From an archaeon (GTDB lineage Archaea; Methanobacteriota_B; Thermococci; Methanofastidiosales; NM3): a stretch of DNA of 52,636 bases. A model generated the notes under the pieces. The model did not search any database. It had not been told where the DNA came from and saw only the letters and a program-made list of their open reading frames with translations. Made by a program: the position numbers and the translations under genes. Below are positions 4,498 to 27,727 of this stretch, piece after piece. The stretch is from the NCBI GenBank assembly GCA_004212155.1, contig RXIG01000014.1:1-52636 (forward strand), in the 5' to 3' direction. Each line of letters starts with the position of its first letter. Within the stretch, counting starts at the first letter, position 1.

Positions 4498-5141
4498 TCG
4501 GTGTCGACGAGGCGGGGCGGGGCCCCGTCCTGGGTCCGCTCGTCGTTGCCGCCGTGCTCGTCGATGACGCCGAGACGTTCGGGACGCTTGGCGTGAAGGA
4601 CTCAAAAAAGCTTACTCCTGCTCGTCGCGAGCGCCTCTTCCAGGAGCTTCTCTCGTGCACGACCGTGGCCGTGGAGAGCGTCGAGCCGTGTGACATCGAC
4701 GGCCATCGGCGCTCATGTTCGCTCAACGACATCGAGACGGACACGTTCGTGCGTGCCCTCTCGCGCCTCCCCTACAGGGGACAGGAGATATACGTTGATT
4801 GCTGCGACACGGTGGAGGAGCGATTCGGAAGGCTCATCTCCGAGCGCCTTGGTGGGGCGACGGTGCACTCGCGCCATCATGCCGATACCGAGGTGCCATG
4901 CGTCTCTGCGGCATCGATCGTGGCAAAGGTCGTGCGCGACAGGGCGATCGCCTCCATAAATGAACAGGTGCAGCAGCGATGGGGCATCTCGGCGGGCAGC
5001 GGTTATCCAATCGATGCCACCACCGTGGCGTTCCTGCGGTTCGTGCAGAGAAACGAGATCAGATTCCCGTCATTCGTTCGACGGTCGTGGGCCACGGCAC
5101 GACGGTTCAATCAGTCAACGCTTGATGCCCACGATGAATGA
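4494..5141 (+). CDS. rnhB: Ribonuclease HII
   Basis: GVDEAGRGPVLGP, KDSKKL, VSAASIVAKV, GSGY; C-terminal QSTLD resembles a PIP box; ATGA overlap with upstream gene. Confidence 0.95.
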   Translation: MIGVDEAGRGPVLGPLVVAAVLVDDAETFGTLGVKDSKKLTPARRERLFQELLSCTTVAVESVEPCDIDGHRRSCSLNDIETDTFVRALSRLPYRGQEIYVDCCDTVEERFGRLISERLGGATVHSRHHADTEVPCVSAASIVAKVVRDRAIASINEQVQQRWGISAGSGYPIDATTVAFLRFVQRNEIRFPSFVRRSWATARRFNQSTLDAHDE

Positions 5142-5765
5142 GTGGTCGTGTTCGTACTCGCTGATGTCCACGGTCTCGGTGACGTCGACGAACGGCTTAA
5201 GGGTCGCCACCTCCTTCTTGAACACCAATTCGGGATCCTTCGTGACATCGATGCTTCGCGCCTTGATGCAGAGCATGATATGCCCCCCAGGCCTCAGGAA
5301 GGGAAGATTGCGCACGAGGATGTCGGCCTGTTCGACCTGGGCGATGTCCTGGTAGATGACATCGACCTTCTCGATGAGAGGCGCATAGCTCAAGGGATCC
5401 TTCGCGTCTGCGAGGATGGGCACGATGTTGGGGCGCTCGCGGGCGACGTTGAGGAACTCGCGCATGGAGCGCGGTGCGAACTCGACGGCATAGACGACGC
5501 CGCTGTCGACGATGTCGGAGATGTGCGAGACCGTCGTGCCGGTGGCAGCGCCAAGGTAGAGCACCTTGGACGTGCCAGTAAACGGCAGGTCCATGAGCCC
5601 CGAGGAGAGCGCCGAGGCGAGCTTTGAGCGGTACGGATTCCAGACGCGGTATTCGATGCCGTCGCGCTCGATGAGCTTCTCTCCGTAGACGCGCCGTCCG
5701 GGAACCAGATTCCTGGTAAGGTAGCCGCGCTCATCGGCGTAGACGTGGGAAAACACTTCCTTCAT
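5115..5765 (-). CDS. flpA: Fibrillarin-like rRNA/tRNA 2'-O-methyltransferase
   Basis: VYGEKL, YRVWNPYRSKL, VLYLGAATGTTVSH, YQDIAQ, IKARSIDVT; start at 5765 overlaps the nop5 stop. Confidence 0.96.
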   Translation of the reverse strand: MKEVFSHVYADERGYLTRNLVPGRRVYGEKLIERDGIEYRVWNPYRSKLASALSSGLMDLPFTGTSKVLYLGAATGTTVSHISDIVDSGVVYAVEFAPRSMREFLNVARERPNIVPILADAKDPLSYAPLIEKVDVIYQDIAQVEQADILVRNLPFLRPGGHIMLCIKARSIDVTKDPELVFKKEVATLKPFVDVTETVDISEYEHDHSFIVGIKR

Positions 5766-6853
5766 CGAGACTTCCTCCTTCCCTTCTTCTTGCGCCGGGG
5801 GGGATACTGGTGTTTCTTGCGTACCTCCTCCACCCGCGCGTCGATGCGCGCCTGGAGCTCGGAGGCCACCATGTTGCCCGAGTGGTAGTCGACCCGCGCC
5901 GCGATGGCAAGCTCGGAAGCGAGCGTACGCGCGATCTTTCCGCTCTGCCACGGCTTAGCGGTGTGCACGAGGGGATGTTGAAAGATGATGCCGTGCTTTG
6001 GAGGCTTGGCACCCGTCTTGAGGTGGCGGAAGAGCGCCTTTTCCGCCCCTAGCACCTGGACCGTCGAAGCAGGTTTGCGCGCCAGATTCGCAAGCCCCCC
6101 CGCAAGCGCGATGAGCCGTGCGGCGATGAGCGGTCCTGCAAGCTCGGTGAGGTTCGGCGCCACCGCCCTGACACCCTCCTCGATGTAGTCGGTGTAGTCC
6201 TTTCGCACCGTGCTCAGGTAGACCACCTGCTTCGCAAGCGATCGGATCGCCTCCATGTCGCGCGCGGAGAGCTCGACGCCGACGCTCTGTTGCGCGGCGG
6301 CCTGTATGTCGTTGCCAGGGATGTTTTCCCGTTGCCCGTGCTCAGCGATCAGGGTGCAATACTGCACGTTGTCGACGACGAGCCGCTCAAGCTCAGGGAA
6401 GTGGATGCCATACCATTCGACGAGCCGCTCGGTAAAGAGGTTTATCGTCTGGTCGAGCTCGTCGATGGCATTGGTCGCCTGGGAGATTGAGAGGCCCTTG
6501 GACGATGCGGTCGTGCGGAGTCGCTGCTCCACCAGCGAGAGCGTCATGTCCCTTTGAAATTCCATGGACGCCGCCAGGTCCTCGCCGGCCTGTTTGAGCG
6601 CGCCCTCATGGAACGCCTGGCGCTCCTCGAGGGGCAAGAGCTTGCATCCGAGCCATGAGGCGATGGCATGATTGTCACACCGGTCGATGTCCCGCTGCGC
6701 CAGCTGGCCGAGCATGTCGGGCACCTCGCCCTCCCACAGCGATGAGAATAATGTTGCGACGTCCTTGGCGTCGCCGGGAAACGCTATGGTCTCAATGAGC
6801 GCGCCCTTCTCGTCGAGCAGCAGCATGCCACGAACGGTGGTGATGAGTATCAT
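5762..6853 (-). CDS. nop5: C/D box sRNP protein Nop5 (Nop56/58)
   Basis: EWYGIHFPEL, APNL...GPLIAARLI, PASTVQVLGAEKALF, PPKHGIIFQHP, Lys/Arg-rich tail; operon with fibrillarin. Confidence 0.96.
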   Translation of the reverse strand: MILITTVRGMLLLDEKGALIETIAFPGDAKDVATLFSSLWEGEVPDMLGQLAQRDIDRCDNHAIASWLGCKLLPLEERQAFHEGALKQAGEDLAASMEFQRDMTLSLVEQRLRTTASSKGLSISQATNAIDELDQTINLFTERLVEWYGIHFPELERLVVDNVQYCTLIAEHGQRENIPGNDIQAAAQQSVGVELSARDMEAIRSLAKQVVYLSTVRKDYTDYIEEGVRAVAPNLTELAGPLIAARLIALAGGLANLARKPASTVQVLGAEKALFRHLKTGAKPPKHGIIFQHPLVHTAKPWQSGKIARTLASELAIAARVDYHSGNMVASELQARIDARVEEVRKKHQYPPRRKKKGRRKSR

Positions 6854-6983
6854 GGTATCATACCTACCTGATTGGTCATATTTAAATATCTACTGCTGTG
6901 TTGCCTGGGCAAAAAACAGAGCCTTCAAAAACTTTGTTCAGGAAAAAAAGAAGTGGTGGGAAATAGGAAGAAAAGATGATGGT

Positions 6984-7913
6984 TTATCCTTCTTCCTCAA
7001 AGAAATCATCATGTTCATCTGCAATTTCCTTGCGTTGCTCCAAGTACGAGGCAGAATTTTCATGTGCGGTGTCCCGCTCATCTACGAACTCGTCGAGGAG
7101 CGTGGCAAGTGCCGTTCCGTCCGCGGGAAAGTCTTGCGGATGATCTTGTTCGATGGCCTTCATGCCATCGTAATGGTTTACCATCTCATCGTCGTGGGCA
7201 TTTTGCTCATGTATCAGCTGGCTGGCGGTCTCCATGTTCTCGTTGCTGGCCGCATATGCTGCATCCTTGAGGAACCCCAGCGACTTGATCGTGTGGTCGC
7301 TCATCTCTACGAGGTGCGTGGCATATTGCGTGACGTAGCCCACCTCTATCTTCTGTGCCAGCTCGAGCATCGATTCTGCCGTCAGGAGGAGATCTTCCCA
7401 CTTGTCCTCCGAAAGGTTGGCAGCGGATATCGCCGACTGGTAGTTGCCGTCGTTGTAGTACGATACCGCGTCCAAGTATTGTTGAACCGCGGAATCAAAT
7501 GATCCCTGGAATGCGTCGTAGTGCTGTCCGAACTTGAGCGAATAGATGATCTTGTCGTTCCATTCGAACTGTTCCAAGTATGCCTCGATCTCCTTTTCCC
7601 ACAGATTGACATATTCATTCAAAAAGTCCTTGTCCAGGTCGTCCGCCAGCGGCCTGAGATCCTGGACCTTGTTTAATCCTTCCTGGTATTCCGAGTAAGC
7701 GGCCTCGTACTTGGTGAGCGCTAGGTCGTACTGGTCCTGCTGCAGCGCCTCGTTGCCTTCGTCCTTTAGCTCATCACCGGCGTTGAGGTACTCGTTTGCG
7801 GCATCGACGGTGCTGTTCCATTCCTCGATGTTCTCATCGTCGCCCCCCATGCATCCTGAAGCTGCCACCACCGGTATGAGCAGCAGCATGGTCAATAGCA
7901 GTCTTTTCTTGAT
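6984..7913 (-). CDS. Hypothetical lipoprotein with helical/TPR-like repeats (start uncertain, possibly ATC at 7913)
   Basis: KKR + hydrophobic stretch + lipobox ASGC; acidic helical repeats (GNEALQQDQYDLA, AVSYYNDGNYQSA). Confidence 0.7.
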   Translation of the reverse strand: MKKRLLLTMLLLIPVVAASGCMGGDDENIEEWNSTVDAANEYLNAGDELKDEGNEALQQDQYDLALTKYEAAYSEYQEGLNKVQDLRPLADDLDKDFLNEYVNLWEKEIEAYLEQFEWNDKIIYSLKFGQHYDAFQGSFDSAVQQYLDAVSYYNDGNYQSAISAANLSEDKWEDLLLTAESMLELAQKIEVGYVTQYATHLVEMSDHTIKSLGFLKDAAYAASNENMETASQLIHEQNAHDDEMVNHYDGMKAIEQDHPQDFPADGTALATLLDEFVDERDTAHENSASYLEQRKEIADEHDDFFEEEG

Positions 7914-8187
7914 TATATCACCACTAGTTCTCTCGGGAGCATTATAAAAATATTTTTTTATTGTTTATATCTTATAGCTCTCACTCGATCTCCATCATGT
8001 GATGGCCCCTCCTTCTTGGGCGATGAGGTCCTTCGCTCGAGCATATCGATAGAACATGCCGGCACATATGGCTACTTGCCTGTATGAGCACACAAGGCCA
8101 TACAGCGGCCATATGTTGTTCTTTTTTCTTCCCTATTTGAAAAAACTTATAAAGATACAGCCTTATCTTCACTACGAGGAGATTCTG

Positions 8188-20366: not shown

Positions 20367-21482
20367 ATGAGAAATCGTTATAAGCTCCTTGCGCTACTTC
20401 TCGTAGTCATAATAGCGTTCTCTTTTTATACTTTTAATCTCCAACGATACATGGCTCCCCTTTCCGCATTTGGCAATCCTGTCGAAGAGGACCATGACCT
20501 CTTCACTGTCAACATGTGGCCCAACGGGATGTCGGGTGCATGTATGGTCACGCTCGATGACATATCCTCAGGGACATCCCCTTCAGACATGTGGCTTGTC
20601 GATTCCATCCTTCAGGAATATGGTGCCCACGCGACGTTTTTCGTTATACCAGCACATGGTGGGGAATCGAATGCCATCGCTGACAACGATGATGTCACCG
20701 ATGCGCTCAGGCAACTTGTTGATAAAGGCCACGAGGTTGCGTTGCACGGCTATTCGCATACGCCCCCAAAGGAGTTGCGTGGATTGAACAAGGAAGAACA
20801 GGCCAGCCTCATAACTGCCGGCAAGGAGATGCTCATTAATTCCATAGGGCCCGTATACGGATTCAGGGCGCCTTCTTTCTGGGACAACACGTCGACACAG
20901 GTCGTGCTGGCTGAAGAGGGATTCGAGTACAACGCTGGCGCCAGCCTGTTCAACGTATATCCTTATCAACCAAAGGACCTGTTCGACCCATTTTTCGGTG
21001 ATGTCATTGACATCATCGAAGTGCCGTGCTTTCCAATAGACTATCTGGCGCACGTTACGTCGGTATCTTACAGTGAGGACCTCTACAAACTCGAGGCCCG
21101 ATTTGAGGGGTGCCATAGCAAAGGCACGCCTTTTGTGCTTTTTACCCACCTCCCTGCATTAATGGAGGTGGACTCGCACACACGCCGTCACGAAGGCTTG
21201 CTACTCCTTGATTCGTTCCTTGGATATGCCGAAGAGCAGAACGTGTGGATGCCGTCCATGATAGAATTTGTACGATGGTGGGAGTTCATTACCCAGGCAA
21301 AGATTGATTACCATATGTCGTCAAACAATCTCGTCATATCAGTGATATCGGAGGATGTCATTGAGGGATTAACGTTCAATCTTGCCCTCCCTCCGGACAT
21401 CAACGACGTGTCAGTCTATGTGAACAACGAACTCGTCTTCACACAACAGGATATCGATAGCGATGCGAGGATTATCCTTTAA
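20367..21482 (+). CDS. Membrane-anchored polysaccharide deacetylase (NodB/DUF2334-like)
   Basis: N-terminal TM, TLDD, ATFFVIP, HEVALHGYSH, GFRAPSF. Confidence 0.85.
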   Translation: MRNRYKLLALLLVVIIAFSFYTFNLQRYMAPLSAFGNPVEEDHDLFTVNMWPNGMSGACMVTLDDISSGTSPSDMWLVDSILQEYGAHATFFVIPAHGGESNAIADNDDVTDALRQLVDKGHEVALHGYSHTPPKELRGLNKEEQASLITAGKEMLINSIGPVYGFRAPSFWDNTSTQVVLAEEGFEYNAGASLFNVYPYQPKDLFDPFFGDVIDIIEVPCFPIDYLAHVTSVSYSEDLYKLEARFEGCHSKGTPFVLFTHLPALMEVDSHTRRHEGLLLLDSFLGYAEEQNVWMPSMIEFVRWWEFITQAKIDYHMSSNNLVISVISEDVIEGLTFNLALPPDINDVSVYVNNELVFTQQDIDSDARIIL

Positions 21483-22720
21483 AAGAAGATTATCTCTTTT
21501 TCTATTGCGTTTACCGCTTCTTGGTCCTTCAAGATCCTGATGGATGCGCGTTTGAGCGATGAACCCAGCCCGCGTTGTGAAACGATGATGTCATTGATGA
21601 GATCATCGATGGAGACGTACTTCCGCTCACGAATGGTGTAGAGTACATCCTGTTCGACAAATACGTCCGGATGCTTCTGTTTGAACTTTTCCGCATGAGC
21701 ATATTTTTCCACCGGTGGACCTCGGTGTTTTTCCTTCTCCGGAAGCTGGCCGATCTCTATGTCGAGCATGACGCCCTTTGAGAAGACGCCGTGGCGAAAG
21801 AGGGTAAATCCATTGTCCCCACATTCCTTCACGACGTGCTCCACGAATTTGCGTGCCTGAGCGTAAAAGACCTCTTCGATGACATCAATGTCAAAAATGA
21901 TGACTACAAACGTCCCCGCATCGACAGGTTGGTACCCTGGCCTTGGCCCAGAAAACATCCGCACGTCTTTTGTTTCTGATACCGTGCGTGCCGCTTCGAT
22001 AAACCGTGAGAAGGTGGAAAGCGACACTGCGGAGGCCACATTCCTTGTAGGGTCTACAGGGTCTACGACGACCAACGGGTCTTCAAAGCCCTTCCCGTTT
22101 CCGTTCATGTCGATGATAACACCCCGCTCCCACTGAATGGCGTGAGCAAGAAGATTGGCAAAGGAATTGTACTTTATTATAAGCAGTTCGCAGAGATATC
22201 CCGAAAAACCATTCGCTCGAGAGTCAGCACCATAGAGCTTTTGGGCCTTGAGGAATTTTTTGAGAAGGCGTACATCATCCCTTTGAGAATCGTTCAGGTG
22301 TTCCATTACATATTCGAGATGGAAGGGGGTCCTGTCGACAGCGGATCGTATGTGCCTTCCAGAGGCGACCTTGTAGCATGGCACGATTTCCACGGGTAGA
22401 CCCTCGATGTCACCAGACACATATGGGTGCTCTGCATACGCTATCTTGTAGGAAGACCCAAAATGATTGAACGTAGACTTGCCTATCCGGAGTCCTTCAC
22501 GCTCAAGGAGCTCTTTGGGAAGGGATGGGTCAAAGAAGACGAATATGTCTAGGTCCATGTCCTCTTTTAGAAATGTATCCTTTGCTACCGAACCAACAAT
22601 AATCGATTCCTTACCAAAGGATTCCAATATATATGTCTTAATATGGTTGAACAGTTTTAGGGCGTTATCCCTTTCTCCTTCCTTTGGTCTGATTCGTTTA
22701 GTTATCTTGTCAAAGTTCAT
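21479..22720 (-). CDS. cca: CCA-adding enzyme (archaeal class I)
   Basis: VGSVAKDTFL...DLDIF, YAEHPYV, SAVDRTPFH, GFSGYLCELL, DPVDPTRNVASA. Confidence 0.96.
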   Translation of the reverse strand: MNFDKITKRIRPKEGERDNALKLFNHIKTYILESFGKESIIVGSVAKDTFLKEDMDLDIFVFFDPSLPKELLEREGLRIGKSTFNHFGSSYKIAYAEHPYVSGDIEGLPVEIVPCYKVASGRHIRSAVDRTPFHLEYVMEHLNDSQRDDVRLLKKFLKAQKLYGADSRANGFSGYLCELLIIKYNSFANLLAHAIQWERGVIIDMNGNGKGFEDPLVVVDPVDPTRNVASAVSLSTFSRFIEAARTVSETKDVRMFSGPRPGYQPVDAGTFVVIIFDIDVIEEVFYAQARKFVEHVVKECGDNGFTLFRHGVFSKGVMLDIEIGQLPEKEKHRGPPVEKYAHAEKFKQKHPDVFVEQDVLYTIRERKYVSIDDLINDIIVSQRGLGSSLKRASIRILKDQEAVNAIEKEIIFF

Positions 22721-23268
22721 AGGAAGAAATCCTTGACGGTTGAGTATATTGGCCCTTTCGGAGTAAGGGTGCTTTTGACAAGGCTAAATGATGTTACATC
22801 CTGGGTGCCTATTTCTATATCGTTCAATGATTTGATGATGTCATTGACATCCTTTTTTTCGTATACGGACTTGACGCGCGCGAACGTGATGTGTGCCTTG
22901 TATGGTTTCTGTTCCTTTTTGATACCCAATGTTGCCAAATGATCATCGATAGATTGAGCCAATTCTTCGATTTTTGGTTCATTGGCACCCACCCATATGA
23001 TTTTAGGGGCAAAAGAGTGAGGAAAAGCCCCCACACCATATATATGTAGAGAAAATGGTCCAATGTCATCATGTGAGTGTTTCAATGATTTGATGATGTC
23101 ATTGATGTCATCGTCTCTCTTTTCACCGATAAACTTCAGAGTGATGTGAATGTTATCTTTTGGAACAAACTTTGCCTTGATAACATTTTCTGGAAACTTC
23201 TCATAGAGCTCTGTGATTTTTTCTTTTATTTTCTCATCAAGAGTTATGGCTACGAAAAGCCTTGTCAT
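22717..23268 (-). CDS. thpR: RNA 2',3'-cyclic phosphodiesterase (2H family)
   Basis: RLFVAI, HITLKFIG, HITFAR, STLTPKGPIY. Confidence 0.93.
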   Translation of the reverse strand: MTRLFVAITLDEKIKEKITELYEKFPENVIKAKFVPKDNIHITLKFIGEKRDDDINDIIKSLKHSHDDIGPFSLHIYGVGAFPHSFAPKIIWVGANEPKIEELAQSIDDHLATLGIKKEQKPYKAHITFARVKSVYEKKDVNDIIKSLNDIEIGTQDVTSFSLVKSTLTPKGPIYSTVKDFFL

Positions 23269-23771
23269 ACAATATCTCCATTACCCTTGCTTATAGGCAT
23301 CTTTTCCCAGGGAAAAATGATCCACTTGTCAGTTTCAAAAACATAGTAATCTGGATCAATGATGCTTTTTGGTTTCTTAGCAATAACAGCTATCTTAATC
23401 GATTTGGCTTTTTTCTCAATAATATGTTTTTTTATTGCTACAAGCGTTTTACCAGTATCAGCAACATCATCGATTATTAAAACATTCATATTTTCTATGT
23501 TTTCAGTTAAAGGAGCTGTAATTTCTGGTTTTTCCATTCTTTTTTCAATGTCTGTGTAGAATTTGACATCTACTACACGCATAAGGATATTGTCTGAGAT
23601 ATGTGAAAGCCTGACGGCAGGCACTAATCCGCCCCTTGCGATTCCAACTATTATGTCGGGCCTGAACTCCTTTTCTATTTCATCTTTGAGAGTCCATATC
23701 GCTTCATCTACTTTTGCCCAATCCAAGTACTCCTTATCCATGTCGTTCACATCGGATATTTTTGTTTTCAT
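23265..23771 (-). CDS. Purine phosphoribosyltransferase (Gpt/Hpt-like)
   Basis: IVGIARGGLVPA, VLIIDDVADTGKT, PDYY...WIIFPWE. Confidence 0.9.
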   Translation of the reverse strand: MKTKISDVNDMDKEYLDWAKVDEAIWTLKDEIEKEFRPDIIVGIARGGLVPAVRLSHISDNILMRVVDVKFYTDIEKRMEKPEITAPLTENIENMNVLIIDDVADTGKTLVAIKKHIIEKKAKSIKIAVIAKKPKSIIDPDYYVFETDKWIIFPWEKMPISKGNGDIV

Positions 23772-23825
23772 TATTTAAATATTGGTATAGGAACAAGTTT
23801 TTATATGCGTTGAGAGAAATATCAT

Positions 23826-23845
23826 GTCAAGTAAAACGCCTTGAC
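23826..23845. promoter_or_regulatory. Candidate operator, inverted repeat GTCAAG-N8-CTTGAC
   Basis: Perfect 6-bp arms between a TTTTATAT box and the ATG at 23858, in a divergent intergenic region. Confidence 0.45.
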
Positions 23846-23857
23846 TGAGGGATTTTC

Positions 23858-24259
23858 ATGAAATACTCCTTTGAGTACATAGAAAAATGGATAGAAACTG
23901 ATTCTTTTGCTAATAAATTATTGAATATTAGTTATTTTTCTAAAATACAATTAAAAGATTATGTTTCATACATATGGAACAAGGAATTTGGAGATAATGT
24001 CACTCTTATAGAGCTTGCTGAACATCGAAATGTATCAAAACAGGCTATTTCTGACAACATACGACTTGCAAAGGACAATGTTGACAAGGCAATGGCCACC
24101 TTTATTTTGGGAGTTTACGCAAACCTTATCCCTCTAGAATCGATCATGATCTACATGGAATTATTGGAATTGTTAAGGGATGCAAAAGAAAGTGAAAGTG
24201 AATTGGCCTTTCAAAAAATGAGAAAAAAGATGATGATAATTTTGGATGAATTATTATGA
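23858..24259 (+). CDS. HTH DNA-binding protein (YlxM/sigma70-region-4-like)
   Basis: TLIELAEHRNVSKQAISDNIRLA resembles a YlxM-type HTH; GAGG SD. Confidence 0.72.
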   Translation: MKYSFEYIEKWIETDSFANKLLNISYFSKIQLKDYVSYIWNKEFGDNVTLIELAEHRNVSKQAISDNIRLAKDNVDKAMATFILGVYANLIPLESIMIYMELLELLRDAKESESELAFQKMRKKMMIILDELL

Positions 24260-24319
24260 TGTCAATAACATCTTAATGATATCATTGATGTTATTGATAT
24301 CTTCGTCACATCACCGATG

Positions 24320-24928
24320 TTATACTGCGTTGTAGATGAATTCCTTGCCTTTGCGTGTTCTTGTAAGATATCCTTTCTTGTGTAGTGTCTTGAGGGTTCT
24401 TGATATATGTCCTTTCGACATGCCCGTTTCTTTTGATATCTGTTCAGATGTGATGTTATTTTTGTACTTTGAAAGGATGCCCTCTTCGAATTCTGTTAGA
24501 TCCTCATCGGATGTTTCCTTGGGCGTAATCTTAGTTTCCTTCTCTTTCAGGGCAAAATCTATGAATTTATCTGTTATTTGATGCTGTGAATCCTTTATTG
24601 TCTTAACATCTTCTTCAATGAAGCTCATTTCTTTTTTGAGCAGATTTAATTCATCTTTATACACTACTTTTAGCATATCGTTATCGATTTCTACCATTTT
24701 TTCTGCTAATTTGTCGAGCTTAAATTCTTGTTTTTCTGTAGTTGCATCCAAGTTTTTTATATCACTTTTTATATTTTGCACTTCTGAGAACAAAGACCGT
24801 ATATCAGTGCGTAATGCTCGTATATTTTCGTCATCATGTTTTTCGACGACTTCTTTGAGTTTAGATATCTCCTCTTCAAGGTGAGTGTCCGGTTCTTTTT
24901 TCAGTCCAAGAAATGATAGAAGCCCCAT
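24320..24928 (-). CDS. Amphipathic-helix / coiled-coil / C-terminal winged-helix protein
   Basis: N-terminal MGLLSFLGLKK; heptad-rich central region; LTEFEEGIL...TSEQISKETGMSKGHISRTLKTLHKKGYLTRTRKGKEFIY. Confidence 0.8.
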   Translation of the reverse strand: MGLLSFLGLKKEPDTHLEEEISKLKEVVEKHDDENIRALRTDIRSLFSEVQNIKSDIKNLDATTEKQEFKLDKLAEKMVEIDNDMLKVVYKDELNLLKKEMSFIEEDVKTIKDSQHQITDKFIDFALKEKETKITPKETSDEDLTEFEEGILSKYKNNITSEQISKETGMSKGHISRTLKTLHKKGYLTRTRKGKEFIYNAV

Positions 24929-24949
24929 AATATGCTTTAGGTAATTATC

Positions 24950-24965
24950 TTTTAAATAACTTTCG
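24950..24965 (-). promoter_or_regulatory. BRE-TATA promoter of the coiled-coil wHTH gene, abutted by a repeat copy
   Basis: Minus strand reads CGAAAGTTATTTAAAA 22-37 nt upstream of ATG 24928; GATGTCATTGA at 24968 lies immediately upstream. Confidence 0.6.
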
Positions 24966-25085
24966 ATGATGTCATTGAAATATCGTTGAATATGATTTTT
25001 ACTTGTTTTTTAATATTTCTTTTATAAACACTCGGACAATATAAAATATCGATGATGTCATCGATGTTATTTGACATCAATGATA

Positions 25086-25751
25086 TTATTTGACATCAAT
25101 GACATCATCAACAATACTTATTGTTTTACACTCTCTTGTGAATATGCCGTTCTCTATAGTACCGGGGATGTTATTCAATTCCACTTCACGTGTTTTCGGA
25201 TTATCTATTTTCACCCAAAGATCTATTATGAAATTTCCATTATCAGATATCACTGGTCCGTCCTTTGCCTTAGCTTCACGCAAAATGGGGTTGCCAATCT
25301 CTGAAATACGCTTTATAACACTGGTATATGCTAGTGGTAGCACCTCTATTGGCACGGGGAATTTACTACCTAGTTGTTCAACGAACTTACTATCATCGAT
25401 AAGAACAAAAAAATCCTTAGCGCTGTAGCCTATTATCTTTTCCCGTGTCAGCGCCCCTCCCCGCCCTTTGATGAGATTTTTGCTTGGATCGACTTCATCA
25501 GCTCCATCAAAGGCTTTTTCTGGGGTGAATTCATGCAGTGTAACGATATTAATTTTATTATTTATGCATAGTTGCATTGATTGATAAGACGTCGGTACAG
25601 CATAGAATTTTTCGCCGTCTTCTATGCGCTTGCCTAGAGCATTAGCCAGATACTTGACCGTACTTCCAGTTCCCAACCCTATGACTTCTTCATCTTTGAT
25701 TAGTTGTGCAGCATATTTTCCTATTTCTTCTTTTTGCTTTTCTTTGTTCAT
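25086..25751 (-). CDS. rpiA: Ribose-5-phosphate isomerase A
   Basis: GLGTGSTV, DGADEVD, IKGRGGALTREK, PVPIEV, SDNGNFIID. Confidence 0.96.
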   Translation of the reverse strand: MNKEKQKEEIGKYAAQLIKDEEVIGLGTGSTVKYLANALGKRIEDGEKFYAVPTSYQSMQLCINNKINIVTLHEFTPEKAFDGADEVDPSKNLIKGRGGALTREKIIGYSAKDFFVLIDDSKFVEQLGSKFPVPIEVLPLAYTSVIKRISEIGNPILREAKAKDGPVISDNGNFIIDLWVKIDNPKTREVELNNIPGTIENGIFTRECKTISIVDDVIDVK

Positions 25752-26143
25752 ACTGTACAAACCTTTTTTATTAATATTAATATATTGTTCATGTAATATT
25801 TGTTTAGTTTTGAATAGGTTATCTTTATATATGGAGATTAATTAATGCATTCTACTTTTTATCTTTCTTTTTCATGACTTCACTTGAATTTACATATCTA
25901 CTGCTGGTATAATCATTTAATAGGTGATATATAGATTAATCACACATTTGAAAATTGCTTGATGGAATTTATATTTTGCATTGAGATGAGGGCAGCGTAC
26001 CTCCATTGATACACATTTGTCTTCAGTGCTTAGGAATGTGTATCTGAATGCTGTCTTAGGATCCGTTACACATGATGTCTTCGAATCGCGGTATGCGCAT
26101 GGAATCAGATACCTTTTTGAGCAATGCCTTCGATATCTGTACT

Positions 26144-27727
26144 ATGCGCCGGCACATTGTTAAGGTCTGTATTTGCTTACTCATACTCCCCTTATTTTTA
26201 CCTTCCTTGGCGTGTGCTATTGATTCTTCTGAAATAGATGAGGCTTTGGATGATGGCAATGTTACAATTCTTTTTTTCCGCGATGAAAGTTCAGTTTGTG
26301 GCATCATCATGAGCATGTTGTCCGATATCTCTTCGTCCTATGACGATGTGGATCTTATAGAGATATTTATTAGTGATAATGCTGATCTTGCAGACAGGTT
26401 CGAGGTTGGTGAACCCCCCGAGGTCCTTGTTTTTGATGGATTCGGCAGTTTGCATGAGCGCATCACCGGTGCACGCAGCAGAACATTTTATGAGGAATCA
26501 GTTCAAGGGGCCCTTGCAGCTCTAGAGAACATGAACGCTTCGGCTGATAAGTTCTATCAGAATGCCACTATTTTTTTCGATTCCGGTAAGTATACCAATG
26601 CACTTCAAAATTTTACCATGGCCGAGGAATTGTATGTTGAACTGGACAACGTCGAACGAACTTTGTTGTGCCGCATGTATATCCAAAAATGCAATAATTA
26701 TATCACTGCGCATGATCACTTGTCGCAGGCCGATGAATTATTTGAAGACGGCGAGTATGAGGATGCTGCTTTAGAGTATGATATTGCTTCTACGTACTTC
26801 GATAAGGTTAACGATGAGGAACTAATTGCATATTGTTCTCAGCAAATTGGTAGGTGTGAGCTTATCCCCTCTGCCGAGGATGATTTTTCGAGGGTTCAAG
26901 TCCTTATGGACTCTGGCCGTTACGGCACTGCTCGGCCTCTGCTCGTTTCTCTCAAGGACACGTATGCGGCCATTGGTGATGCAGAAAAAGAAGAGACAGT
27001 GTCCCAGTTGCTTACTACCTGTGACCTCTACCTTGAGGCGGATGCGTATGTCACGTCCGGATCCTCTGCCATGAGCGAGGGCAATTATGATATAGCGGTC
27101 GAAGAGTATACTGCGGCGCGAGATATATATACGGACTTGGGCGATTCTGACAAGGCTAGCATGTGTACCCAAAACATAACGCTTGCTCAGCAATATAGCA
27201 ACTCACAGACGCCCGCCCCTCCTGAAAAAGATGAAGAAGTTTTGGCGTTGGATTATCGTTATATTGCAATTGGGGCAACAGCCCTTCTCGTCATTCTCCT
27301 TTCAATCGTGTTATACAGACGTTCATCGAAAGCCTCCCGGGATTCGGGTTCAGCAATGGCCCGATTATCAGCTGGGCTGTCTTCTACCGAGCTGGAACAG
27401 GTGACCGAGCAGGAACCTGAGCCCGTTGAAGAGAACATGGAGCAAGCACATGACACATTCCTTCTGCATAGGGACAGCATTTTCGAGACAAAAAACACGT
27501 TGTTGTTCCAGTTTTCCCAATGGGTCGATGAACTATTGAATGAGATGGAAGGGGCCCAGCCGCATCAATACTTCTTTTTCAGGGGGAGATTCGAATCATT
27601 GCAGGCGTTCTTCACACGAAGTTTCAGTTCAGACGAGGAGTATATCGACCAAAGGCTCCTCTCGGATGTGAGGGATCGATTGCATGAATGCCAGTCCCGC
27701 CTCAACGATTTGATGGATCTTGTGTAG
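26144..27727 (+). CDS. Secreted/membrane-anchored thioredoxin-fold (SxxC) + TPR-like repeat protein
   Basis: Signal peptide, ESSVC, LADRFEVGEPP, helical repeats, single TM (YIAIGATALLVILLSIVLY), cytoplasmic tail. Confidence 0.72.
   Translation: MRRHIVKVCICLLILPLFLPSLACAIDSSEIDEALDDGNVTILFFRDESSVCGIIMSMLSDISSSYDDVDLIEIFISDNADLADRFEVGEPPEVLVFDGFGSLHERITGARSRTFYEESVQGALAALENMNASADKFYQNATIFFDSGKYTNALQNFTMAEELYVELDNVERTLLCRMYIQKCNNYITAHDHLSQADELFEDGEYEDAALEYDIASTYFDKVNDEELIAYCSQQIGRCELIPSAEDDFSRVQVLMDSGRYGTARPLLVSLKDTYAAIGDAEKEETVSQLLTTCDLYLEADAYVTSGSSAMSEGNYDIAVEEYTAARDIYTDLGDSDKASMCTQNITLAQQYSNSQTPAPPEKDEEVLALDYRYIAIGATALLVILLSIVLYRRSSKASRDSGSAMARLSAGLSSTELEQVTEQEPEPVEENMEQAHDTFLLHRDSIFETKNTLLFQFSQWVDELLNEMEGAQPHQYFFFRGRFESLQAFFTRSFSSDEEYIDQRLLSDVRDRLHECQSRLNDLMDLV

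Follow-up and report, generated by a model that had tools for sequence, protein, structure and literature searches.

In the bacterial RacA/ram, Noc/NBS, MatP/matS and ParB/parS systems, DNA-binding proteins with clustered, specific sites position a region of the chromosome; Noc carries an N-terminal amphipathic helix and both RacA and MatP contain coiled coils. To our knowledge, the positioning and separation of chromosomes remain largely unknown in archaea outside the Sulfolobales. In RocS of Streptococcus pneumoniae and RicO of Staphylococcus aureus, a DNA-binding domain is reported to be joined with a coiled coil and an amphipathic helix (10.1101/2024.07.25.605149; 10.64898/2026.03.06.710092). 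RicO is described as recognising a specific motif at nine origin-proximal sites (10.64898/2026.03.06.710092), while the single helix of RocS is described as too weak for the membrane, requiring coiled-coil oligomerisation (10.1101/2024.07.25.605149). The archaeal SegB, found in the Sulfolobales, is a ribbon-helix-helix (RHH) protein encoded beside the ParA-type SegA (PMC8682754), and its sites are reported to occur mainly near its own locus (segAB) and to be mostly intragenic, with higher-order complexes being formed and peripheral foci hinting at a membrane tether (10.1101/2025.02.07.637068). Here, these systems are compared with a 202-aa protein (hereafter the target) and the cluster of sites around its gene, which is located at positions 24320–24928 (reverse strand; stop codon 24320–24322) of a 52,636-nucleotide stretch (the window; contig RXIG01000014.1, positions 1–52,636, GenBank assembly GCA_004212155.1) from an archaeon of the order Methanofastidiosales. 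The host belongs to a small group of methane-making archaea. A first-pass annotation of the window proposed that the target binds repeats flanking its gene and links the locus to the membrane. The reading tentatively favoured here is that the target is a lineage-specific, site-specific binder, many copies of which would form a centromere-like or anchoring complex on an origin-proximal locus, with autoregulation of the gene and an N-terminal peptide directed to the membrane or a partner.

The arrays flanking the gene are composed of GAYRTC hexamers at a 9-bp phase (sometimes 10–11 bp), in both orientations. The pattern GAYRTCRWYGA has 29 matches in the window, where 2.2 would be expected and no more than 7 were obtained in any of 100 shuffles; nineteen of the 29 fall within positions 21000–25106. 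For positions 20900–25200 a local first-order Markov model gives an expectation of 0.14 matches, and the largest number in 1000 simulations was three. Thirteen of the nineteen cluster matches are situated in coding sequence, where codon permutation within the seven genes concerned predicts 0.37. The cluster comprises about ten site groups over ~4.1 kb around the target gene, the majority of them within neighbouring genes. The repeat arrays described in the first-pass annotation are thus real on both sides of the gene, but they are not mere flanking operators, as the cluster reaches across 4 kb. The 14-mer GATGATGTCATTGA is present in five copies in the 1.49-Mb genome, all of which occur in the cluster, and when up to one mismatch is permitted nine of the twelve genomic copies are found there.

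As this pattern was derived from the window, the independent test lies in other loci. The target family comprises sixteen proteins in a search of 5.8 billion sequences, and an exhaustive HMMER search of 1.84 billion representatives yielded two clusters at E < 1e-10, both belonging to the same family. Among the 133 genomes of the GTDB class the gene is found in three, all within one family, namely the source genome (G000, with the window on contig C16), G025 (locus L001) and G029 (locus L002). G025 and G029 have the gene order of the window, namely trm1, a tetratricopeptide repeat (TPR)/thioredoxin-like membrane protein gene, rpiA, the target gene, the convergent gene for the helix-turn-helix (HTH) protein HTH-133, a phosphoribosyltransferase (PRTase) gene, ligT, cca and a deacetylase gene. 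Both loci carry the motif in the same places as the window: at the end of rpiA, in the promoter and 3′ gap of the target gene, and within ligT, the 3′ part of cca and the deacetylase gene. Furthermore, it is present in 7/7 metagenome loci which encode full relatives of the target (eighteen metagenome loci were found, of which eleven matched the HTH core only, at E 3e-5 to 3e-4, and were excluded from this count), with the strict pattern absent from the 3′ gap of L024 and L026. On the 158.7-kb contig G029:C47, 13/16 matches are concentrated at 100.8–104.5 kb, around the target gene. A 15-mer pattern places 4/5 sites in G025 and 3/4 sites in G029 on the contig carrying the gene, and where the locus is unassembled the matches (seven in G026, one in G027) are scattered, with G+C-rich spacers. 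A second site pair is found in G025 (C2:53996–54061), at a distance of 15 kb from the target gene towards orc1, and consists of a perfect palindrome and GATGTCGATGATGTC, 51 bp apart.

The neighbouring HTH-133 (23858–24259, forward strand) is a 133-aa YlxM/sigma-region-4-like HTH protein on the basis of profile matches below cut-offs. Eight loci which contain HTH-133 and lack the target gene show no match to the pattern, and HTH-133 has a near-identical presumed recognition helix in genomes with and without the motif. The motif therefore appears to travel with the target gene and not with HTH-133. The binding of the repeats claimed in the first-pass annotation is thus supported by co-occurrence, the motif being present in all gene-bearing loci and absent from the eight HTH-133-only loci, and we infer that the target is the site binder.

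The coding-sequence matches lie in several neighbouring genes. Two sites occur in ligT, one at aa ~54–58 (23095–23109; peptide D-I-N-D-I-I) and the other, a perfect 15-bp palindrome (GATGTCATTGACATC), at aa ~140 (22837–22851). The gene for the CCA-adding enzyme includes one site in its 3′ part, at aa ~375 (21587–21597; peptide D-L-I-N-D-I-I), and a second match at 21876–21886. The palindrome GATGTCATTGACATC recurs with a third hexamer (GATGTCATTGACATCATCGA) in a polysaccharide-deacetylase-like gene (21000–21019; frame D-V-I-D-I-I-E), which incorporates two further matches (21354–21364 and 21396–21406); the matches in this gene have counterparts in L001 (9506, 9890) and L002 (9465–9522). Comparison within the same order shows that the motif at LigT aa 52–62 is present in 8/8 target-bearing loci (two of whose ligT genes share one sequence) versus 0/21 ligT genes of target-less genomes, and that at LigT aa 138–141 in 5/8 versus 0/21. 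The 21 target-less ligT genes contain a single motif match, located elsewhere, the residues at the site are unrelated (e.g. ESSYKRIV, EKNIEDIY), and their G+C content (0.30–0.41) is as low as or below that of the target-bearing ones. For the CCA-adding enzyme, the motif at aa 370–377 is found in the genes of 4/6 target-bearing loci versus 0/20 other genes covering the region, with one match elsewhere. The orthologues used for comparison are no less AT-rich. In the target-bearing loci the embedded sites of both enzymes encode D-[VI]-N-D-[VI]-I. Read in frame, the motif specifies GAY (Asp), RTC (Val/Ile) and RWY, and therefore suits an acidic amphipathic helix. Given that three helices of two housekeeping enzymes bear the same peptide in this lineage only, the embedded sites would be best explained by selection acting on the DNA. 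Whatever the function of the target, selection at the DNA level for candidate binding sites appears to have visibly reshaped neighbouring housekeeping enzymes. A stretch of 20 nt is identical between the two sites of ligT (22828–22847 and 23086–23105), as is the peptide NDIIKSL, which suggests that the site may have been duplicated by internal copying or gene conversion. The exact 15-bp palindrome was also considered as a marker of the lineage and set aside, as it is too strict in exact form and, with one mismatch allowed, matches 17/34 genomes of the order in a scattered manner.

Upstream of the target gene, a putative TATA-like element (TTATTTAAAA; 24950–24959, reverse strand; −31 to −22 of the ATG) and a putative B recognition element (BRE)-like CGAAAG (24960–24965, reverse strand) could be read from the sequence. 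The pair lies 22–37 nt before the ATG, and from this predicted spacing the mRNA would be leaderless or have a very short leader. The promoter-proximal site TCGATGATGTCATTGA (forward strand; 24963–24978), which in gene orientation reads TCAATGACATCATCGA, overlaps the BRE by 3 nt. A site is also found at −35 to −50 in G025 and G029, followed in both by an equivalent A/T-rich box. The repeat copy said in the first-pass annotation to abut the BRE-TATA pair is thus confirmed, in an arrangement kept in both other gene-bearing genomes. The autoregulation deduced from it gains a conserved site overlapping the BRE, from which autorepression may be expected. A distal upstream array of seven GAYRTC-type hexamers, some degenerate, at 9–10 bp spacing (25045–25106) runs over the stop codon and last ~7 codons of rpiA (…VDDVIDVK*), with the same overlap in L001 and L002. 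The RpiA tail of ~8 residues (…IVDDVIDVK; 25086–25110) is thereby encoded by the site array and extends beyond the RpiA profile match (residues 4–216 of 224), with equivalent tails in L001 (…DNDIIDVI) and L002 (…HDNIIDVK). Two inverted copies (24965–24978 and 25096–25109), 100% complementary, are located on either side of a 117-nt AT-rich spacer. On the 3′ side, six hexamers with spacings of 9, 11, 9, 9 and 20 (24258–24321) occupy the 60-bp gap between the convergent target and HTH-133 genes, and corresponding 3′ arrays are found in L001 and L002.

Considering this promoter arrangement, the target could be an ordinary local transcription factor, i.e. a dimeric MarR-like protein which represses its own promoter and tunes rpiA, PRTase, ligT and cca, with the intragenic sites acting as roadblocks and the long helix as a dimerisation device. 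The MarR-type winged HTH (wHTH), the overlap of a site with its own BRE in three genomes, and the loosely related functions of the neighbours (ribose, nucleotide and tRNA-end maintenance) are in keeping with such a role. Local regulation does not account for the absence of pattern matches from the rpiA promoter region (25761–26071) and the PRTase/HTH-133 promoter region (23772–23857), nor for the distribution of the matches, with 13/19 in coding sequence and others in the 3′–3′ gap. Dimerisation could, moreover, do without so long a helix (114 residues) and without a conserved peptide at the N-terminus, and local regulation without the alteration of housekeeping proteins at three helices to carry sites. 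This explanation is thus considered unlikely.

The architecture of the target was predicted with AlphaFold2 using an alignment of fifteen homologues (53–66% identity to the target; one row N-terminally truncated), which gave a mean predicted local distance difference test (pLDDT) score of 82.4. The model includes a short turn at residues 3–6, a single unbroken helix of 114 residues at 15–128 (24545–24886, reverse strand), a flexible linker of low confidence at 129–145 (24494–24544, reverse strand; block pLDDT 44), and a winged helix at 146–202 (24323–24493, reverse strand), of which residues 146–201 form three helices and a β-hairpin (H-H-H-β-β). The alignment-averaged hydrophobicity of the long helix has an overall period of 3.63, its power being reached by 1/2000 shuffles. 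Residues 36–91 have a period of 3.54, and phase jumps (register shifts) occur near residues 30–35 and 92–99. On the basis of these periods and jumps, the helix is probably heptad-based with discontinuities, in agreement with the heptad-like stretch of about 110 aa noticed in the first-pass annotation. A two-copy complex prediction from the same alignment gave a score of 0.04, which is no evidence either way.

The C-terminal wHTH is likewise borne out, with Pfam matches above the cut-offs, MarR_2 scoring 30.4 bits where 27 are required and MarR 26.0 bits where 24.6 are required. These cover residues 156–193 only, the HTH core (positions 18–54 of the 61 in the profile), and the NCBIfam matches, to ArsR/Lrs14/Csa3 HTH models, were all sub-threshold. 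Foldseek comparison of the whole model against the Protein Data Bank (PDB) identified ArsR/MarR/BlaI-type winged helices (E ~5e-3 to 1.6e-2), with AspA (5k5q), an archaeal plasmid centromere binder, at rank 19; all matches were to the wHTH and no full-length analogue was found. A profile search of PDB sequences with the target gave a best E value of 0.007. The best ESM Atlas cluster (0.89, below the 0.9 mark) is an archaeal MarR/TrmB-type hypothetical protein of ~209 aa and serves as a lead only. An ESCRT-III/PspA identity, suggested by the MG-hydrophobic N-terminus, was rejected, as the model is one straight helix, Foldseek matched the wHTH only, and neither Snf7 nor PspA families are among the best 25 of the 47 Pfam matches (E ≤ 1) of the target.

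The N-terminal peptide (aa 1–11; 24896–24928, reverse strand), MGLLSFLGLKK in the target and MGLLSxLGxKK in the alignment, is highly conserved, with M1, G2, L4 and G8 at least 90% conserved among the fifteen homologues. Residues 12–16 behind this near-invariant peptide are variable, and much of the helix and HTH is invariant. Residues 2–12 have a mean hydrophobicity of 0.54 (rank 5 of 192 windows) and a low hydrophobic moment of 0.22, with G2, S5 and G8 forming a small-residue face. The peptide is a hydrophobic patch followed by lysines, for which the term 'amphipathic helix', used in the first-pass annotation, is only partly apt: the conserved hydrophobic and basic character holds, but with such a moment it is not cleanly amphipathic. 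No second open reading frame of the source genome begins in this manner. A sister family (P0019, P0025, P0026 and P0027; 170–204 aa, on metagenome contigs of up to 202 kb) shares ~29% identity with the target and has the N-terminus MGL[FIL]xFLKxKKK (MGLFSFLKQKKK and similar), followed by helices, a conserved MHDDHHRI helix and a wHTH; when P0026 was searched in the same class, the target itself was the sole match. The retention of the peptide at this level of identity suggests that it is a constrained functional end of the protein. The peptide presumably resembles the membrane-targeting sequence of MinE. Among archaea, the N-terminal helix of SepF (residues 1–12) is reported to anchor the protein to vesicles (PMC8178401), and a hydrophobic-plus-basic terminus of ~12 residues is reported to anchor DipA to lipid (PMC13228585). 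By analogy, attachment of the target to the membrane through its N-terminal peptide is plausible.

On account of the low hydrophobic moment, a protein partner is equally possible. The target could be a centromere-binding adaptor whose peptide contacts a protein, such as an ATPase of the ParA/MinD type or a component of the cytoskeleton or division machinery, and the moment suits a docking motif as well as a lipid anchor. The N-terminal tail of ParG stimulates its ATPase. Likewise, the N-terminus of SegB is reported to stimulate SegA (PMC8682754). A MinD/ParA-like gene (C5:15071–15781) is encoded on the orc1 contig of the source genome, but the match is below the family cut-off (68 vs 202 bits). 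No ATPase gene adjoins the target gene or is found on the same contig, and the peptide is hydrophobic rather than of the basic arginine-finger type. An adaptor of this kind is thus given little credence.

The cluster is found at 32 kb from orc1 (Orc1/Cdc6) in G029 and at 45 kb in G025. On G029:C47 the cumulative GC-skew minimum coincides with orc1 (~72 kb), with no turn at the locus (100–108 kb). Just upstream of orc1/cdc6, an inverted 17-nt repeat (CCTTCATTTCCAGTGGA and its complement; 94% complementary, arms 139 nt apart) is present at L069:11986–12158 (G029:C47 71,986–72,158), which, from the Orc-binding consensus, is probably the origin recognition box (ORB) pair of oriC. The counterpart of this region in G000 lies between contigs C5 and C16, where the assembly is interrupted. 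Contig C16 matches G029:C47 from its third base onwards, and the segment of G029:C47 that immediately precedes this match is collinear with C5, which carries orc1 in G000; from this synteny the target gene of G000 would be ~25–33 kb from orc1. The cluster is near the origin and is not itself an origin. A role as replication-origin element, with iteron-like repeats around an AT-rich unwinding region and the target as initiator accessory, would draw on the inverted copies around the 117-nt spacer, the AT-rich region and the divergence of gene orientation near 25.8–26.1 kb. With the skew turning at orc1 beside the inverted repeat and not at the locus, no Orc1/Cdc6 gene nearby, and no ATPase domain in the target, this role was rejected as highly improbable.

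The cluster is associated with a conserved GC trough (22400–26400), a fall from 55% to 32%, where the G+C content per gene or segment is 0.31–0.42 against a genome median of 0.55 and which covers ligT, PRTase, HTH-133, the target gene and rpiA. From the side of ligT the values per gene are 0.50 (deacetylase), 0.48 (cca), 0.39 (ligT), 0.36 (PRTase) and 0.31 (HTH-133), and on the side of rpiA 0.35 (target), 0.39 (rpiA), 0.46 (TPR) and 0.50 (trm1). A trough is also found in the relatives (~0.48 to 0.30 in L001, ~0.40 to 0.26 in L002), where it extends over 3–4 kb of housekeeping genes (L001 about 4500–8000; within 100–108 kb of G029:C47). It co-occurs with the target gene in every locus seen, its depth scaling with the genome background, while the loci of another family which contain HTH-133 and lack the target gene show no multi-kb GC dip in the 3.4 kb seen. 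The same dip in relatives of other base composition argues that the trough is native, old and maintained, and it may result from selection for AT-rich DNA at the site cluster or from local mutational bias. An assembly chimera or a recent foreign island was rejected as its cause, as synteny and trough recur and the genes are the housekeeping copies of the genome. Elsewhere in the genome a comparably low G+C content is confined to two stretches (G000:C5:19345–21954 and C12:209–2545; 0.26–0.38), both of which code for a single large protein that is secreted or exposed at the surface (869 and 778 aa, respectively) and are unrelated to the target locus.

The target could also be an H-NS-type nucleoid-structuring protein, which would nucleate at high-affinity sites and bridge or coat the trough without membrane contact. 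The H-NS architecture is that of a coiled-coil oligomerisation domain with a C-terminal DNA-binding domain, and the target has the order helix, linker, DNA-binding domain. No GC trough that covers housekeeping genes is deeper than the one holding the sites, and it accompanies the gene in all loci seen. In addition, SegB is reported to compact DNA and to loop it between its sites (10.1101/2025.02.07.637068). A structuring protein of this type would leave the near-invariant N-terminal peptide, common to the sister family, unexplained. The covered genes are essential housekeeping genes, which makes silencing unlikely, and the sites are specific palindromes and not just AT tracts. Such a function is thus deemed improbable.

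The trough also affects how the distribution of the target gene is to be read. Four of the seven genomes of the GTDB family have no target match, and among these four ligT and rpiA are likewise missing (0/4 each) and cca is found in one (a fragment starting a contig). In two of these four metagenome-assembled genomes (MAGs) the TPR gene, at the other trough edge, is cut at a contig start. With ligT and rpiA missing as well and contigs breaking at the trough edges, the locus is probably unassembled rather than absent, and the apparent absence of the target gene from 4/7 family genomes was set aside as uninformative. Contigs G024:C63, G028:C92 and G026:C10 start exactly at trough edges, inside cca or the TPR gene. 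Assembly or binning apparently fails at this AT-rich locus, giving the impression that essential genes are missing. Irrespective of the function of the target, a multi-kb GC trough appears to be actively maintained around the cluster and breaks MAG assemblies at its edges.

Returning to the favoured reading of a multi-copy complex on an origin-proximal locus, the predicted modules would be arranged as two C-terminal winged helices, joined by a coiled-coil stalk of ~17 nm and held on flexible linkers of ~17 residues. The paired wHTH would read GAYRTC hexamers at the fixed 9-bp phase, inverted or direct, which is how the hexamers are arranged in the arrays. As the sites are concentrated in one chromosomal place, many copies of the target would assemble there, and their higher-order nucleoprotein complex on the ~ten site groups would gain avidity from its many copies and constitute a centromere-like or anchoring locus. 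The site overlapping the BRE would provide autoregulation of the target gene, and the opposite end of the stalk, with its hydrophobic and basic peptide, would tie the bound copies to the membrane, either directly or by way of a partner associated with it. Several observations weigh against this proposal. The target is assigned to the sites by co-occurrence and adjacency, the pattern GAYRTCRWYGA was defined post hoc on this window, and conventional regulators too can have intragenic sites. The whole-helix period of 3.63 departs from 3.5, and with a moment of 0.22 and only ~8 hydrophobic residues, lipid binding by the peptide is not strongly predicted. No ParA/MinD-type gene occurs on contig C16 (the archaeal MinD/ParA model matches are on C5, C22 and C15), hence no obvious motor partner is available. 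Furthermore, as G000, G025 and G029 are syntenic kin, their origin proximity counts as one observation and not three.

A bolder form of this proposal, to be entertained with considerable reserve, is that the locus would be the first of its kind, centromere-like or anchoring and close to the origin, on a euryarchaeal-type chromosome, where a dedicated rod-shaped wHTH protein bound in many copies to ~ten sites in 4 kb would be attached to the envelope by an N-terminal lipid-binding peptide. As a self-contained module, a single protein with its own site cluster close to oriC would offer a directly testable candidate for chromosome positioning and separation. In the bolder form, the strength of selection on the cluster would have sufficed to turn three helices of LigT and the CCA-adding enzyme into D-[VI]-N-D-[VI]-I, and would have held a 3–4 kb AT-rich trough across lineages of about 40 to 55% genome GC.

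Two of the neighbouring genes deserve attention. HTH-133 is encoded in 11/133 genomes of the class, distributed over three GTDB families, and eight of these loci contain neither the target gene nor the motif. It shares 76–80% identity within the family and 49–59% with other families. In three target-less loci HTH-133 is directly convergent with rpiA, and from this adjacency the target gene looks inserted between the two. HTH-133 is only a possible member of the site system. In G030 (L015) HTH-133 adjoins ParA- and ParB-like genes. The TPR gene (26072–27727, forward strand) encodes a 551-aa protein with a signal/transmembrane segment, a thioredoxin-like part, TPR repeats, a second transmembrane segment and a conserved cytoplasmic C-terminal domain. 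It is always located beside rpiA at the trough edge, its full-length form is seen only in this GTDB family, and it could be a candidate membrane partner of the target.

Among the described systems, the MarR/ArsR regulators and AspA of pNOB8 resemble the target in its C-terminal 57 residues, which fold as a wHTH. MarR proteins are compact (~140–150 aa), with N- and C-terminal helices around the wHTH forming the dimer interface and ligand pocket. In the target, by contrast, the wHTH is formed by the last 57 residues, and the dimerisation helices are replaced by the 114-residue helix and N-terminal peptide. It is thus a MarR-type HTH by profile and not a MarR-type protein by architecture. The fold is also unrelated to those of RacA, Noc, MatP and ParB, whose sites extend across regions of tens to hundreds of kb, and a ParB-type family (ParB CTPase domain and HTH) is not among the listed Pfam or NCBIfam matches of the target. 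In the literature searched, no archaeal protein of this build was found described. The class of the host is reported to be without the Dip divisome-positioning system (PMC13228585).

The closest likenesses are to RocS, RicO and SegB. Like SegB, the target is an archaeal, chromosomal candidate site binder with sites near its own gene, most of them intragenic. It differs in being a wHTH on a long helix rather than an RHH protein, and in having rpiA and HTH-133 as neighbours, with no ParA-type ATPase gene adjoining. The three modules of RocS and RicO have predicted counterparts in the target, where the terminal peptide, with a moment of only 0.22, would be a putative membrane helix, and the sites which the target would bind have the origin-proximal position of the RicO sites. 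The need of RocS for oligomerisation would fit a multi-copy complex of the target. No RocS/RicO homology (e.g. DUF536) was found among the best 25 of the 47 Pfam matches or by exhaustive HMMER searching. Unlike in RocS and RicO, the order of the modules is mirrored (peptide N-terminal, DNA-binding domain C-terminal), the host is archaeal and the wHTH is MarR-like, and where the RicO sites extend over ~700 kb the cluster of the target is confined to 4 kb. The target represents a new and tiny lineage-specific family. The packing of its likely sites into one AT-rich stretch near the origin points to a centromere-like or chromosome-anchoring device of a kind not yet described in archaea, and two unusual features of the locus are well supported, namely sites embedded in coding sequence, through which the neighbouring enzymes were rewritten, and the maintenance of a GC trough.

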